A stretch of 64,000 nt of DNA. It comes from Candidatus Oxydemutatoraceae bacterium. GTDB lineage: Bacteria > Pseudomonadota > Gammaproteobacteria > Poriferisulfidales > Oxydemutatoraceae. Shown piece after piece: positions 15,996-63,785 of this stretch. The notes beneath the pieces were generated by a model. That model had not been told where the DNA came from and made no database searches. It saw only the letters and a list, made by a program, of their open reading frames with translations. The stretch is taken from assembly GCA_965226235.1 (NCBI GenBank), contig OZ245335.1, positions 1,580,427-1,644,426 on the forward strand, given 5' to 3'. The number at the start of each line of letters is the position of its first letter. Within the stretch, counting starts at the first letter, position 1. The position numbers and the translations under genes were made by a program.

Positions 15996-16858
15996 CTGAT
16001 CCCGTGTTGCGCGGGTGTGCCAGAACCTGGAGGAGGTGCGCGCGCGAGCCTGCGCTACCGCGATCACGCGCCCGAGGGATGTTCGGCATGGCTGCCGGTG
16101 TGCACCGCCAGTCGGGCGCAGGTTTCTTCCCCGCGCCAGGGGGCTCCCTTAGTCCGCTGCGAGTCGGTGGGCGACTTCAGCGACGCGGCGCCCCAGCGCA
16201 CGGCACAACGCTGTTTCGTCCTGGGTAAGCGGCAGTGTACTGTCCTTGCCTGCGACGTGGCTCGCGCCGTAAGGCGTGCCGCCGCTGCGCGTGGTGATGA
16301 GTTGTGACTCGCTGAAGGGAATGCCGCAGATCAGCATGCCGTGGTGCAGCAGAGGCATCATCATCGTGATCAAGGTGGTTTCCTGTCCGCCGTGTGCGCT
16401 GGCCGAGGAAGTGAAGACACCGGCCGGCTTGCCGACGAGCGTACCGCTCATCCATTGCCCGCCGGTTTGGTCCAGGAAATGCTTGAGTGGAGCGGCCATG
16501 TTGCCGAAACGGGTGGGGCTGCCGAGCAGCAACCCAGCGCACCGATCGAGATCGTCGAGCGTCGCTTCGGGCGCGGTATCGGCGGACACGGCGCTATCCG
16601 TGCCCGGCGTGGTGATCGCTGGCGTGACGCGCAACCTGGCCTCGGTATCGGCAACGCTTTCGACGCCCCGTGCAACCGCGCGCGCCATTTGCCCGACTGC
16701 GCCATAACGCGTGTAATACAGGATCAGTATCGGTAGCGGAGACATCGCAGGTGGTACCAGGCAGGTTCTGGGGCATCTCCCTGAATAATACATCCACACG
16801 CGCTCGCGACAAGCCCCTGGTTGAGAAAGGCTCCATCTTCTCTTGACGCCTACCCGGT
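15991..16858. other. 868-bp wrbA-containing segment present in inverted orientation relative to its second copy at 58294-59164
   Basis: Reverse complement of 15991-16858 aligns with 58294-59164. Flanks differ on one side (sulfotransferase remnant vs IS481 end) and converge on the other (…cctac(ac)ccggt|tgcattgcactatgac). Confidence 0.75.
16149..16745 (-). CDS. wrbA: NAD(P)H:quinone oxidoreductase, flavodoxin-like (WrbA family); intact copy
   Basis: 198 aa: [30 protein letters not shown]… flavodoxin-like fold with …[26 protein letters not shown]…. The ORF tool's 389-aa version is an upstream read-through. Confidence 0.75.
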
Positions 16859-16946
16859 TGCATTGCACTATGACAGCAACAATAATCCGCAGGGGAATGG
16901 TTCCTTGCGGGACGGTTTTCTGCACGTGACAGGAGGAATCTGAAAC

Positions 16947-17219
16947 ATGGAACTGACAGTCCAGCAATTTGAACAGTTTGACAACCGCCTTGAGCAATTT
17001 GACAATCGCCTGCAGGCTGTTGAACAAGGGCAACGAGACCTCGAGCAAGGGCAACGAGACCTTGAGCGCGAGGTCGCTGGCGTCAAGCAGGATCTCTCGC
17101 GTGAGATCGTTGCTTCCCAGGCCCGGATCATCCAGTGGGTGGTCGTTCTGTTCCTGGGCTCGACGGTGGTCGTCGCGACGCTCTCCGGCGTCTATATCTC
17201 GGTGCTGCTCGCGCGATAA
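16947..17219 (+). CDS. small coiled-coil protein with C-terminal TM anchor (DUF1640/CCDC90-like architecture); 2 x EQFDNRL + 2 x EQGQRDL heptads
   Basis: [43 protein letters not shown]…[38 protein letters not shown]. Paralog at 59346 with different repeat number. Confidence 0.55.
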
Positions 17220-17258
17220 CACTTGCGGCCGGAGGCCGCGCCTATTAGTTGACATGAC

Positions 17259-17290
17259 GCCCCGCATCCGCGGGACGTTGTTTATTTGGT
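17259..17290 (+). terminator. possible intrinsic terminator after the coiled-coil gene (GC hairpin + T-rich tail); identical sequence after the B copy (59692-59731)
   Basis: gccccgcatccgcgggac followed by gttgtttattt. Confidence 0.35.
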
Positions 17291-17356
17291 CCAAGACGGA
17301 TCCGACCAACGGCACCAAAATTCGGATAAGCGGTCGGAACCTGGACTTTCAGCCTG

Positions 17357-60306: not shown

Positions 60307-62082
60307 ATGCGTACCCATTATTGTGGAGAGATCGGTGACGCGATGCTCGGTCAGGAGGTGGCGGTCTGTGGCTGGGTCAATCGACGCCGCGACCATGGCG
60401 GCATTATTTTTATTGATTTGCGTGATCGGGAAGGCATCGTGCAGGTGGTCGCCAACCCCGATACGCCCGCGGTGTTCTCGGTCGCCGATCGGGTGCGTAG
60501 CGAGTTTGTCGTGCGCGTGCGCGGAGAGATCAGGCTACGCCCGGAGAATACGGAAAACCCTGCGCTGAAGACCGGCCGGGTTGAAATCGTCGCCGCGGTG
60601 TTCGAGATTCTCAACGTTGCCCGCCCGCCCCCTGTGCAGATCGACGACAGCAACGTCGGCGATGAAGTACGCCTCGCCTATCGGTATATCGACCTGCGAC
60701 GCCCGGCGATGCAACGCAATCTTGGGACGCGCGCGCGCGCGACTCGAGAGTTGCGCGCGTTTCTCGATGATCATGGCTTTATCGACATCGAGACGCCGAT
60801 GCTGACCCGTTCGACGCCCGAAGGTGCCCGCGACTATCTGGTTCCGAGTCGCACGCACGCAGGTGCCTTCTTCGCGTTGCCGCAGTCGCCGCAGTTGTTC
60901 AAGCAGTTGTTGATGATGGGCGGGTTCGATCGCTATTACCAGGTGGTTCGTTGCTTTCGCGATGAAGACCTGCGCGCCGACCGGCAGCCAGAATTCACGC
61001 AACTCGATATCGAGATGTCTTTCGTCGACGAGGATTTCGTCATGCGGCTGGTGGAGCGGATGATCCGCTTGTTGTTCGAGCGCGTTGTCGGCGTGGCATT
61101 GCCGGATCCATTTCCATGCGTTTCCCATGATGAAGCGATGCGGCGCTATGCCAGCGACCGCCCCGACCTGCGTATCCCGCTTGAGATTGTCCCCATCGAG
61201 GACCTGATGCGCGGGGTTGATTTCAAGGTGTTTTCCGCCCATGCCACGGCACCCGACAGCCGCGTCGTCGCCCTTCGCGTTCCCGGCGGCGGCAGGCTCA
61301 CGCGCGGGGCAATCGACGAGTACACTGCGTACGTCAGCAACTTTGGCGCGCGCGGTCTGGCCTATATCAAGTGCGGCGAACTTGCGCGCGCGCGCGCAGG
61401 TCTGCAATCGCCGATTCTCAAGTTCATGCCCGACGATGTGATCGCGAAGCTGCTCGAGCGCACCGGCGCAGCCGATGGCGACATGATTTTTTTCGGCGCA
61501 GGCAAGCGAGAGACGGTCAACGAATCCATGGGCGCATTGCGGGTGCGTCTCGGTCACGACCTGAAGCTGGTCGAAGCGGCGTGGTGCCCTCTGTGGGTCG
61601 TTGACTTCCCGCTGTTCGAGTTTGACGACAAAGCGCAGCGCTGGACTTCGCTGCACCACCCGTTTACCGCGCCGACCGACGCGCAGGTATTGCTGTCCGG
61701 GGAGCCTGCCGCCTGCCGCGCGCGCGCCTATGACCTCGTGATCAACGGCGTCGAACTCGGCGGCGGCTCCATCCGCATTCACGATCCAGCGACGCAGCGT
61801 GCGGTGTTTGACATCCTGGACCCAGAGGAGCACGAACTCGAAGAGAAGTTCGGGTTTCTGCTGCGCGCGCTCGAATATGGGTGCCCTCCGCATGGGGGTA
61901 TCGCGTTTGGCCTCGATCGGCTGGTGATGCTGTTGACCGGGAGCGCATCGATACGCGACGTCATCGCTTTTCCCAAAACCCAGAATGCGCATTGTCCTCT
62001 GACCGACGCGCCCGCGCGCGTGCCGTCAGAGCAACTGCGAGAAGCAGGTATACGCCTTGCCCAGTCCCACGACAAGAAATGA
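60307..62082 (+). CDS. aspS: aspartate--tRNA ligase
   Basis: 591 aa from [32 protein letters not shown]…; class-II motifs (…[23 protein letters not shown]…GGGSIRIHD…). The tool's ORF starts upstream at 60118. Confidence 0.9.
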
Positions 62083-62509
62083 GTCACGCTACAAGCGCCC
62101 CGAGTCGGTGCTGGTCGTCGTGTACACTGCTGACAGGCGGGTGCTGCTGTTGCGCCGCAAGGAACCACCGAGCTTCTGGCAGTCGGTTGCAGGCAGTCTC
62201 GAATGGGGCGAAGACCCGCAACAGGCCATGGTGCGCGAACTACGCGAGGAAACCGGTATCGAAAGCAAGGAAGTCGTGGACTGTTACGTGTTGAACAGGT
62301 TTCTGATCTATCCTATGTGGCGAGACCGCTATGCGCCCGGTGTCGTGGAGGGCCTCGAATACGTGTTCAGGCTCAAGCTCGACACTATATGCGAGATTAC
62401 GCTCAACGAGCGGGAGCACGCGGAATACCAGTGGGTGTCTCGCCGCGAAGCACTGGAGCGAGTGAGTTCTTATACCAATTTCGAGGCGATCGAGCAGTGG
62501 GTTTTCTGA
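62057..62509 (+). CDS. nudB: Nudix hydrolase, dihydroneopterin triphosphate diphosphatase-like (NudB)
   Basis: …[57 protein letters not shown]… Nudix box; NudB-like ends. Start uncertain (overlaps the aspS end). Confidence 0.65.
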
Positions 62510-62536
62510 ACTCGACAATCATCAAAAGGATGTAGC

Positions 62537-63277
62537 GTGTCCGGGCACAGCAAGTGGGCCAACATCCAGCACCGCAAGAAAGCCCAGGACGCGAGGCGCG
62601 GCAAGCTGTTCACGCGGTTGATTCGCGAAATCACTATCGCCGCCCGTCTCGGTGGGCATGAGCCGGGCGCCAACCCGCGCCTGCGGTTGGCACTCGACAA
62701 GGCGGCCGCGGCCAACCTGGGCAGGGAGCCCATCGACCGCGCAATCAAGCGTGGTGCCGGTCTGGTGGAAGGCCGGCCTTACGAAAGCGTGCAATATGAA
62801 GGATACGGTCCGGCTGGCACGGCCGTTCTCGTCGACTGCGCTACGGACAACCGCAACCGCACCGTCGCAGAAGTACGCAACGTGTTTACACGCCACGGCG
62901 GCAGCCTGGGAGAGAACGGCTCGGTCGCCTACCTGTTCGAGCGGCGAGGCGTGCTGGGCTATGGGCAGGCGGACGAAGACACGATACTCGAAGCGGCGCT
63001 CGAAGTGGGCGCCGACGATGTGGTCGGCAAAGACGGCGCGGTGTGGGTCTTTACTGTCCCGGAGCAACTGTTCGAGATTGGACAGGCCATGGGGGCCAGC
63101 GGGTTCGCGCCCGATGAATCGGAGCTGGGCATGGTTCCAACTTCGCTGATCGAGATCGGCGGTGAAGATGCCGACCGGCTGGTGCGGATGCTCGACTCGC
63201 TGGAAGAACTCGAAGATGTGCAGAACATTTACTGCAACGCCAACCTGTCGGATACCCCTTGGCTGCCGTGGCGATGA
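62537..63277 (+). CDS. yebC: YebC/PmpR-family transcriptional regulator
   Basis: MSGHSKWANIQHRKKAQDARRGKLFTRLIREITIAARLGG… canonical YebC N-terminus. Confidence 0.85.
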   Translation: MSGHSKWANIQHRKKAQDARRGKLFTRLIREITIAARLGGHEPGANPRLRLALDKAAAANLGREPIDRAIKRGAGLVEGRPYESVQYEGYGPAGTAVLVDCATDNRNRTVAEVRNVFTRHGGSLGENGSVAYLFERRGVLGYGQADEDTILEAALEVGADDVVGKDGAVWVFTVPEQLFEIGQAMGASGFAPDESELGMVPTSLIEIGGEDADRLVRMLDSLEELEDVQNIYCNANLSDTPWLPWR

Positions 63278-63284
63278 TTGCAAC

Positions 63285-63785
63285 ATGCAACGCATTTTAG
63301 GCATAGACCCGGGACTCGTTGCGACCGGTTACGCCCTGATCGAAAGCGACGCAGGTGCCGTACGCCTGGTTTGTAGCAATGTCATCGCAGCGCCGAATGG
63401 TCAGACGTTGCCCGTGCGCCTCGGCGTGATCTTCAATGGCCTGAGCGCGGTCATCGAATCCTACCGCCCCGAGGCAGCCTCCATAGAAACCGTGTTCATG
63501 CACAAGGACGCATCGGCGGCGCTCAAGCTCGGGCAGGCCCGCGGTGTCGCCGTTTGCGCGAACGTGATCCACGGCGTGGCCGTGTATGAATACGACACCC
63601 GCGTGGTCAAGAAAACCATCGTCGGCAAGGGCAACGCCAGCAAGCAGCAAGTGCAGTTCATGGTCGCGCGTCTGCTGCAAGTAGCCGAGCGCCAGCGTAG
63701 CGACGAAGCGGACGCGATGGCGCTTGCCCTGTGCCACATTTTTACGCACGGCGCGAAGACCCGGCTGGAGCGGGCAATGCCATGA
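63285..63785 (+). CDS. ruvC: crossover junction endodeoxyribonuclease RuvC
   Basis: [20 protein letters not shown]… RNase-H-like fold with catalytic D/E residues. 166 aa. Confidence 0.85.

Follow-up and report, generated by a model that had tools for sequence, protein, structure and literature searches.

The 64,000-nt window of the Candidatus Oxydemutatoraceae bacterium genome analysed here contains two related blocks, copies A and B, which lie 42 kb apart and were found by comparing the window with itself (positions are in window numbering unless prefixed by a contig name). The best explanation of the whole, in which we have considerable confidence, is that a unit carrying wrbA, a small gene that we call Y, and fmdB-aspS-nudB-yebC-ruvC-ruvA-ruvB was duplicated, and that the two copies then decayed reciprocally by deletions, an inversion and point lesions. 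The copies share two segments. Block X, at 15988–16857 in A and 58294–59165 in B, is 98.4% identical, with 12 substitutions and one 2-nt gap in ~871 nt, and is in inverted orientation between the copies. The Y block, at 16858–17358 and 59257–59799, is in direct orientation, with 5 point differences and changed repeat numbers. As X is inverted but Y is direct, A and B are not collinear. The initial annotation of this DNA, made from the letters and their open reading frames (ORFs), did not report this; the wrbA part is inverted in B relative to the part from Y to fmdB. With function read from the ORFs, an intact ORF is present in one copy only for wrbA (A) and for fmdB, aspS, nudB, yebC, ruvC, ruvA and ruvB (B), and in both for Y. 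The reciprocal decay proposed there therefore stands for wrbA, kept in A only, and for fmdB to ruvB, kept in B only, but not for Y.

The genes following copy B had also been called intact. Within the window this is so for fmdB, aspS, nudB, yebC and ruvC, all full-length in comparison with relatives (Table 1), whereas ruvA, which runs off the window end, is seen intact only in sequences outside it. A Logan contig (L001), 100% identical to 62549–64000, takes ruvA to codon 156. It overlaps the ruvA stub of copy A by 52 nt with one single-nucleotide polymorphism (SNP) and ends exactly 30 nt past the first SNP distinguishing stub and true ruvA, a break attributable to a k = 31 assembly graph with both copies in one sample. 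A 197-aa RuvA on a 2.1-Mb contig (P0001) is identical over the 156 residues compared. Finally, a 26.7-kb contig from another sample and strain (L082), 99.72% identical to 57522–64000, continues past 64000 with a full ruvA (197 aa), ruvB (345 aa, with all motifs), a 5-kb island, tolQ, tolR and tolB. The ruvA 3′ end and the ruvB 5′ and 3′ ends found in A are 97–99% identical to this true locus. The presence of full ruvA and ruvB after B makes this a true duplication rather than a split operon; the earlier reading was to give way to a rearrangement model if no genuine ruvA 3′ end and ruvB lay beyond 64000, and L082 and P0001 reveal them there.

Copy A can be followed in a sister-strain contig (L086), 99.3% identical across 15988–29522, which was reached via the 129-aa ORF at 25236. 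Three deletions have shaped the copy, with microhomology at each junction. The largest removed the region from fmdB to codon ~140 of ruvA, that is, ~4.4 kb (4405 bp in L082 coordinates) and not the 3.9 kb first estimated, although the loss of fmdB through 5′ ruvA had been recognised correctly. CTGGC, at its junction, is present in both parental sequences (cagcCTGGCggcg after the Y ORF of B and cagtCTGGCcacg in ruvA), and the junction therefore fits a microhomology deletion. As had been proposed, the block then runs into a ruvA 3′ stub, comprising the last 57 codons against the ~55 claimed; the stubs of the window and the sister strain differ by a 22-nt slippage duplication. A second deletion, of 801 bp, lies inside ruvB, with its junction at a 12-nt repeat GCGCGCGGGCGC (17715–17726); the Walker A motif is lost and the gene keeps its own 3′ end. 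It is this deletion that truncates ruvB, and not, as previously thought, an element of the IS481 type (IS, insertion sequence), which starts 42 bp past the stop codon of the remnant, at 17853. Both junctions are the same in L086. The third deletion removed ~700 bp at the left edge in the window strain, at an imperfect 13-nt microhomology: the last 13 nt of a fragment of a tandemly repeated gene (15988–16000, CTGATACTGATCC) overlap the start of block X. At this edge L086 has ~700 bp more, consisting of the rest of the gene fragment and an 86-bp segment, Z, to the left of X. As L086 keeps this DNA, the left junction of A in the window is a strain-specific microhomology deletion.

At its right edge, copy A retains 42 bp of genuine ruvB-downstream DNA and has no counterpart of the L082 island. 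This 5.07-kb island (L082:7938–12924) sits at the ruvB 3′ end between perfect 85-bp direct repeats (7853–7937 = 12925–13009) and contains two N6/N4 DNA methyltransferases, a ResIII-type helicase fragment and unknown ORFs. Copy A is thus an ‘empty site’ for the island, which either entered the true locus once the duplication had taken place or disappeared from A.

The direction of change was judged from relatives, of which L002 and L003 are Chromatiales metagenome-assembled genomes with ~72% protein identity, and L085 is closer (84% for RuvA). At this locus, a single minus-strand wrbA faces away from fmdB-aspS-nudB-yebC-ruvC-ruvA-ruvB in L002, L003 and L085 (second copies elsewhere were not searched for). 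L084, in which only the 5′ end of wrbA is present at the contig edge, is consistent with this arrangement, and L083 has IS elements instead of wrbA. Copy A, its sister-strain counterpart and every relative that still has wrbA carry the gene on the minus strand, whereas B has it on the plus strand; the orientation in A is therefore ancestral, and wrbA has been flipped in B. With L083 and L085 as outgroups, A is the copy that changed at all nine resolvable differences in the ruv stubs, and the true genes changed at none. Of the sequence to the left of wrbA and to the right of ruvB in L002, L003 and L083–L085, an IS1634-type transposase alone has a match in the window. In the closest relatives, the region between wrbA and fmdB is variable (L083:1–5100, L084:2202–2711, L085:1966–4001) and holds HigB/HigA-like toxin–antitoxin genes. 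In L083, IS1634-type and IS481-like elements occupy the place of wrbA, and the site appears as a recurrent target of mobile DNA.

The opposite fate of wrbA was described correctly in the initial annotation. The gene in A is a full 198-aa ORF whose product, an NAD(P)H:quinone oxidoreductase, scores above the curated NCBIfam cut-offs for WrbA (NF002999, 188 bits with a cut-off of 141; TIGR01755, 168 bits with a cut-off of 132.5). In B, both lesions reported are present: the start codon is changed from ATG to ATA at 58406–58408, and a C4 tract has become C6 at 58633–58638, giving a +2 frameshift, where the counterpart in A is G4 at 16515–16518. With L002 and L003 as outgroups, M1I, L106F, C143Y, V191Y, L198R and the frameshift are derived in B and A41T alone is derived in A; that is, five of the six amino-acid differences arose in B, and there are no synonymous differences. 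Taken with the ruv stubs, the outgroup comparisons indicate that the lesions are derived on the lost copy in each case. Between the window and the sister strain, the wrbA coding sequence of A shows no difference, but several indels separate the non-coding 3′ flanks. In B, the ATA and C6 are common to both strains and L106F was gained in the window strain only. On this comparison of the two strains, reciprocal decay is still in progress. The sister-strain gene call for wrbA used a 368-aa start. Exact-protein look-ups for WrbA of A, for Y of A and for the DAO gene at 19129 gave no match, and a search for WrbA homologues gave none of at least 90%.

The inversion of the wrbA segment in B, which had gone unnoticed together with the second and third deletions of A and the role of IS481-type ends, carries a structural signature. 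The 9-mer CCTACCCGG is found once in A, uninterrupted at the junction of wrbA and Y, and in B as an inverted pair beside two IS termini; it is present nowhere else in the window. The flipped segment, Z together with wrbA, has on its left the terminus at 58293 followed by CCGGGTAGG, and on its right the terminus at 59251 followed by CCCGG and then Y. In this genome, IS481-type elements have as their right-end repeat the 27-nt sequence, TGTATGAGTCCACCACATATGGGACAA, that ends Z. This terminus forms the exact left boundary of copy A in the sister strain, where it adjoins the tandem-repeat gene fragment. Intramolecular transposition in trans, as described for IS26 and Tn4401, leaves an inverted segment between IS ends with the target duplicated in inverted orientation, each copy beside one end (PMC4471558). 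Two IS ends and an inverted 9-bp duplication around an inverted segment are this published signature. The system here differs in being of the IS481 type, not IS6 or Tn3. A further difference is that IS26 and Tn4401 leave the original and a newly replicated full copy, whereas here there are a 106-bp left-end fragment and an older 27-nt solo right end. The 27-nt end also stands in the un-inverted copy A of the sister strain and thus predates the inversion; a replicative inversion that created this remnant was rejected on the same observation. Bracketing by fragment ends fits two facing ‘inside-out’ ends better than replicative copying, and the most economical version would be that two such ends, the IS481-type left end and the solo right end, attacked a site 950 bp away.

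The element that forms the right boundary of copy A, IS481a, has the ends TGTATGAGTTCAGAAACAAATGGGA and TGTATGGGTCCACCACATATTGGGA, and the same end types are found at 27867, 58293, 37029, 7101 and 52592. Its ORF, 17852–18865, gives Pfam matches to HTH_32/HTH_28 and rve/rve_3, that is, an N-terminal helix-turn-helix and a DDE core in a single ORF. From its domains, size, ends and best NCBIfam match, we classify the predicted element as IS481-like. This longest transposase ORF begins with an ATG that spans the left junction (A from the flank and TG from the IS) and ends 14 nt past the right terminus, so that both of its ends depend on flanking DNA; the call in the sister strain is 326 aa.

Between the two copies lies a 40.4-kb block (17853–58293) with outward-facing IS481-type left-end termini at both edges. 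Its genes are those of methylated-amine catabolism: gmaS/mgs/mgd-type genes and DAO, GATase, GXGXG and Glu_synthase genes of the N-methylglutamate type, a sarcosine-oxidase-like set with an alpha subunit of 974 aa, electron transfer flavoprotein (ETF), an Amt ammonium transporter, an ABC importer, and a 730-aa Oxidored_FMN flavoprotein resembling trimethylamine dehydrogenase. Fragments of IS481, IS1634 and other IS interrupt the block, which has the look of a composite-transposon-like metabolic island. What was duplicated, now present as two direct repeats, measures at least 7.2 kb: it begins at the solo 27-nt IS481-type end that lies downstream of wrbA and reaches 42 bp beyond ruvB. This layout points to one of two origins: the unit was duplicated in tandem and the 40-kb block entered at the joint, or the block integrated in one step with its ends 7.2 kb apart.

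What the sequences themselves show is the duplication, the junctions of the deletions, the inversion together with its IS ends and inverted 9-bp repeat, and on which copy the lesions arose. From these observations we propose the following course of events, whose order is the one that we infer. The ancestral single locus, Z-wrbA(−)-Y-fmdB-aspS-nudB-yebC-ruvC-ruvA-ruvB, was duplicated as a direct unit of ~7.2 kb, probably through IS481-type activity. The redundancy would have relaxed selection, with each gene being kept in one copy. Copy A kept wrbA and Y and lost the rest through the microhomology deletions of 4.4 kb, 801 bp and, in this strain only, ~700 bp, the remaining stubs then gaining the frameshift and point changes. 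Copy B kept fmdB to ruvB, and its Z-wrbA segment was flipped, probably by a transposase-mediated intramolecular event at the CCTACCCGG site. The flipped wrbA may then have lost its start codon, gained the +2 frameshift and collected missense changes.

Several observations weigh against parts of this scheme. The transposase has its best NCBIfam match with NF033577 (IS481; E 1.5e-53), at 182 bits, which is below the cut-off of 224, with IS3 second at 93 bits. There is no direct target duplication at 17853–18851, the flanks GGCACGGGA and GGTGCTTGC being unrelated; this is consistent with later rearrangement, and the window has no complete copy whose flanks are undisturbed. The right flank of the element is unrelated to the locus. 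Unequal crossing-over between flanking IS copies was considered as the source of the duplication and rejected, as no IS481-type element follows the true ruvB. The flipped segment is bracketed by a 106-bp fragment and a 27-nt terminus, not by two full IS copies, and each strain has lost a different part of the 9-bp repeat beside Y. The 27-nt solo right end differs at 4 of 27 positions between copy B (59225–59251) and L086:670–696, whilst the adjoining 59 bp have no substitutions (one 2-nt indel) between the two; the scheme does not account for this local excess of change in the end that the transposase binds. Finally, the ruvA 3′ part and ruvB in this genome rest on P0001 and on a sister strain of 99.7% identity.

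The one-step integration mentioned above would amount to a ‘giant flanking duplication’, in which a 40-kb IS481-bounded element inserted its ends into sites 7.2 kb apart, as could happen across the two sister chromatids of a replication fork. Of these ends, one would have entered 42 bp past ruvB and the other beside the pre-existing solo IS481 end downstream of wrbA. Alternative (sister-chromatid) transposition is known from maize Ac/Ds, and this reading would be its bacterial counterpart. If it were true, the acquisition of the catabolic island would itself have duplicated the neighbouring housekeeping genes and licensed their decay; we consider it possible but rather unlikely. Copy A could instead have come from a related strain by horizontal transfer, carried on DNA bounded by IS481 and trimmed later. 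This would account for the 1.1–2.7% difference between A and B, which is several times the 0.3–0.7% between the two strains, and for the IS481-type termini at both edges of A in the sister strain. It is nevertheless improbable, since nearly all differences are derived on the non-functional partner (9/9 in the ruv stubs and 5/6 of the wrbA amino-acid differences), when a xenologous copy should carry derived, mostly synonymous changes in its functional genes too; wrbA of A departs from the inferred ancestor at a single site, and A and B share their Z/X and X/Y junctions. The insertion of copy A as a composite transposon was rejected, as no matching target duplications were found around 15.9–18.85 kb.

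An assembly artefact, that is, a chimeric contig or a collapsed or expanded repeat in a metagenome-assembled genome, comes to mind because the region is rich in IS copies, a typical cause of misassembly, and the source is apparently an uncultured organism. We give this very little weight: the junctions of A (paralog/Z/X, X/Y, Y/ruvA′, ruvB 5′/3′ and ruvB-downstream/IS481) are all present in the independent L086 and those of B in L082, both contigs being from another sample and strain; the Logan contigs agree; and the dozens of differences between A and B form a biologically sensible pattern. Still less credible is a single ruv operon split by rearrangement, with the stubs of A as the sole ruvA 3′ and ruvB sequence. 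Only 73 codons of the true ruvA are visible inside the window, which by itself is compatible with this reading, but the genes of L082, the RuvA of P0001 and the overlap of L001 with the stub already described all contradict it, and the stubs are frameshifted and lack 267 ruvB codons. Equally remote is the idea that the poly-C tract of wrbA in B is a phase-variation switch in a contingency gene, a suggestion prompted by a frameshift that stems from a change in homopolymer length (C4 to C6). An ancestral C4 tract is too short for efficient slippage. The tract did not vary in length between the two strains, being C6 in the window and in L082, and the start codon is lost in both. With four more missense changes at residues conserved in the outgroups, phase variation is all but ruled out and the gene is a pseudogene. 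Duplication followed by reciprocal decay, the segmental duplication with complementary pseudogenisation put forward at the outset, is thus supported by the true ruvA and ruvB past B, the single locus in relatives and the polarised lesions.

Eukaryotes supply the best-known cases of genes being lost reciprocally after duplication, and of genes moving by duplication and loss. The likeness lies in a multi-gene duplicate of which one copy per gene is kept, with the lesions on the lost copy and wrbA relocated. The eukaryotic cases are whole-genome or segmental; here a bacterial 7-kb segment is concerned, genes are lost mostly by microhomology deletions and IS activity, Y is still intact twice and there is no subfunctionalisation. 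Most IS481-associated events in Bordetella pertussis are tandem amplifications, large and unstable, for which homologous recombination between complete IS481 copies is held responsible (PMC8942028). That genome too is rich in IS, and its duplicate boundaries coincide with repeats of the IS481 type. The duplicate here differs in being old (~1.6% diverged), fixed in two strains, decayed and nearly consumed, in having no IS copy at its outer right end, and in its element scoring below the NCBIfam IS481 cut-off. The locus is a new instance of known processes, with no new molecular system, and offers a well-resolved natural example of redundancy, probably made by IS, being resolved gene by gene through deletions, inversion, frameshift and start loss. 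On the sequence evidence, the sole apparently working wrbA now stands 42 kb from its ancestral neighbours and would have been relocated without ever being lost. For annotation, the wrbA of 58.4–59.0 kb and the ruvA′ and ruvB′ ORFs of 17.36–17.81 kb are to be labelled pseudogenes, and the 78-aa gene called as ‘RuvB_N’ is what a deletion left behind.

Table 1 Positions of the features of copies A and B and of their surroundings in the 64,000-nt window
Feature	Position	Strand	Remarks
Partial fourth copy of ~1-kb tandem paralog gene	15795–16000	+	Left junction of copy A in this strain
Block X, copy A	15988–16857	−	wrbA plus flanks of 161 nt (3′) and 112 nt (5′); ancestral orientation, as in relatives
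wrbA, copy A	16149–16745	−	Intact, 198 aa, NAD(P)H:quinone oxidoreductase
CCTACCCGG	16849–16857	+	Uninterrupted target site; once, at the wrbA/Y junction in A
Y block, copy A	16858–17358	+	Includes ORF Y_A, 16947–17219, 90 aa
CTGGC	17354–17358	+	Microhomology at the ~4.4-kb deletion junction (fmdB to ruvA codon ~140)
ruvA′ stub	17359–17530	+	Last 57 codons; +1 frameshift at 17409; R→Q, M→V, TAG→TAA
ruvB′ mini-ORF	17574–17810	+	78 aa; RuvB residues 1–51 fused in frame to the last 27
Genuine ruvB-downstream DNA	17811–17852	+	42 bp, = L082 13010–13051; 5-kb island absent
IS481a, IS481-family-type element	17853–18851	+	999 bp; left inverted repeat (IRL) TGTATGAGTTCAG... at 17853, right inverted repeat (IRR) terminus at 18851; right boundary of copy A
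IS481-type left-end (IRL) fragment	58188–58293	−	106 bp; terminus at 58293 faces block X′
CCGGGTAGG	58294–58302	−	Inverted copy of the 9-bp target duplication (reverse complement of CCTACCCGG)
Block X′, copy B	58294–59165	+	Inverted relative to A and to relatives
wrbA pseudogene, copy B	58406–59004	+	ATA start, C6 tract, L106F, C143Y, V191Y, L198R
Z′	59166–59251	−	59 bp of wrbA-downstream DNA and 27-nt IS481 IRR-type terminus at 59225–59251, terminus at 59251
CCCGG	59252–59256	+	Remnant of the second 9-bp target duplication copy; CCTACGG in the sister strain
Y block, copy B	59257–59799	+	Includes ORF Y_B, 59346–59660, 104 aa
fmdB	59895–60257	+	Full-length vs relatives
aspS	about 60343–62082	+	Full-length vs relatives
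nudB	to 62509	+	Full-length vs relatives
yebC	62537–63277	+	Full-length vs relatives
ruvC	63285–63785	+	Full-length vs relatives
True ruvA, first 73 codons	63782–64000	+	Continues past the window end

The small gene Y, intact at both of its lengths, encodes heptad repeats in 21-nt tandem units, forming a coiled coil, and a C-terminal hydrophobic (transmembrane) segment. The units are 2 QFDNRLE and 2 QGQRDLE in A, and 5 QFDNRLE and 1 QGQRDLE in B; the repeat regions, 16969–17067 and 59368–59473, thus differ between the copies by in-frame changes in unit number. All three coding point differences between Y_A and Y_B are non-synonymous, and each copy is identical between the two strains. Against Pfam and NCBIfam, Y matched no family and gave coiled-coil noise only. 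It is absent from the relatives, whose 99–104-aa ORFs between wrbA and fmdB are HigA-like helix-turn-helix proteins.

Two further features lie to the left of copy A. The region 12396–16000 consists of three and a fraction tandem copies, with a period of 1008–1056 bp and 79–93% identity, of a gene of ~330–340 aa that has no Pfam or NCBIfam match; the first ORF of the array is fused to a short integrase-core (rve) remnant. Further upstream, a 449-aa ORF (7760–9109), also with no Pfam or NCBIfam match, stands between 472-nt inverted repeats (7270–7741 and 9167–9638) that are 97% complementary, and 7270–9638 is possibly a mobile element of a kind not described before, having long terminal repeats.

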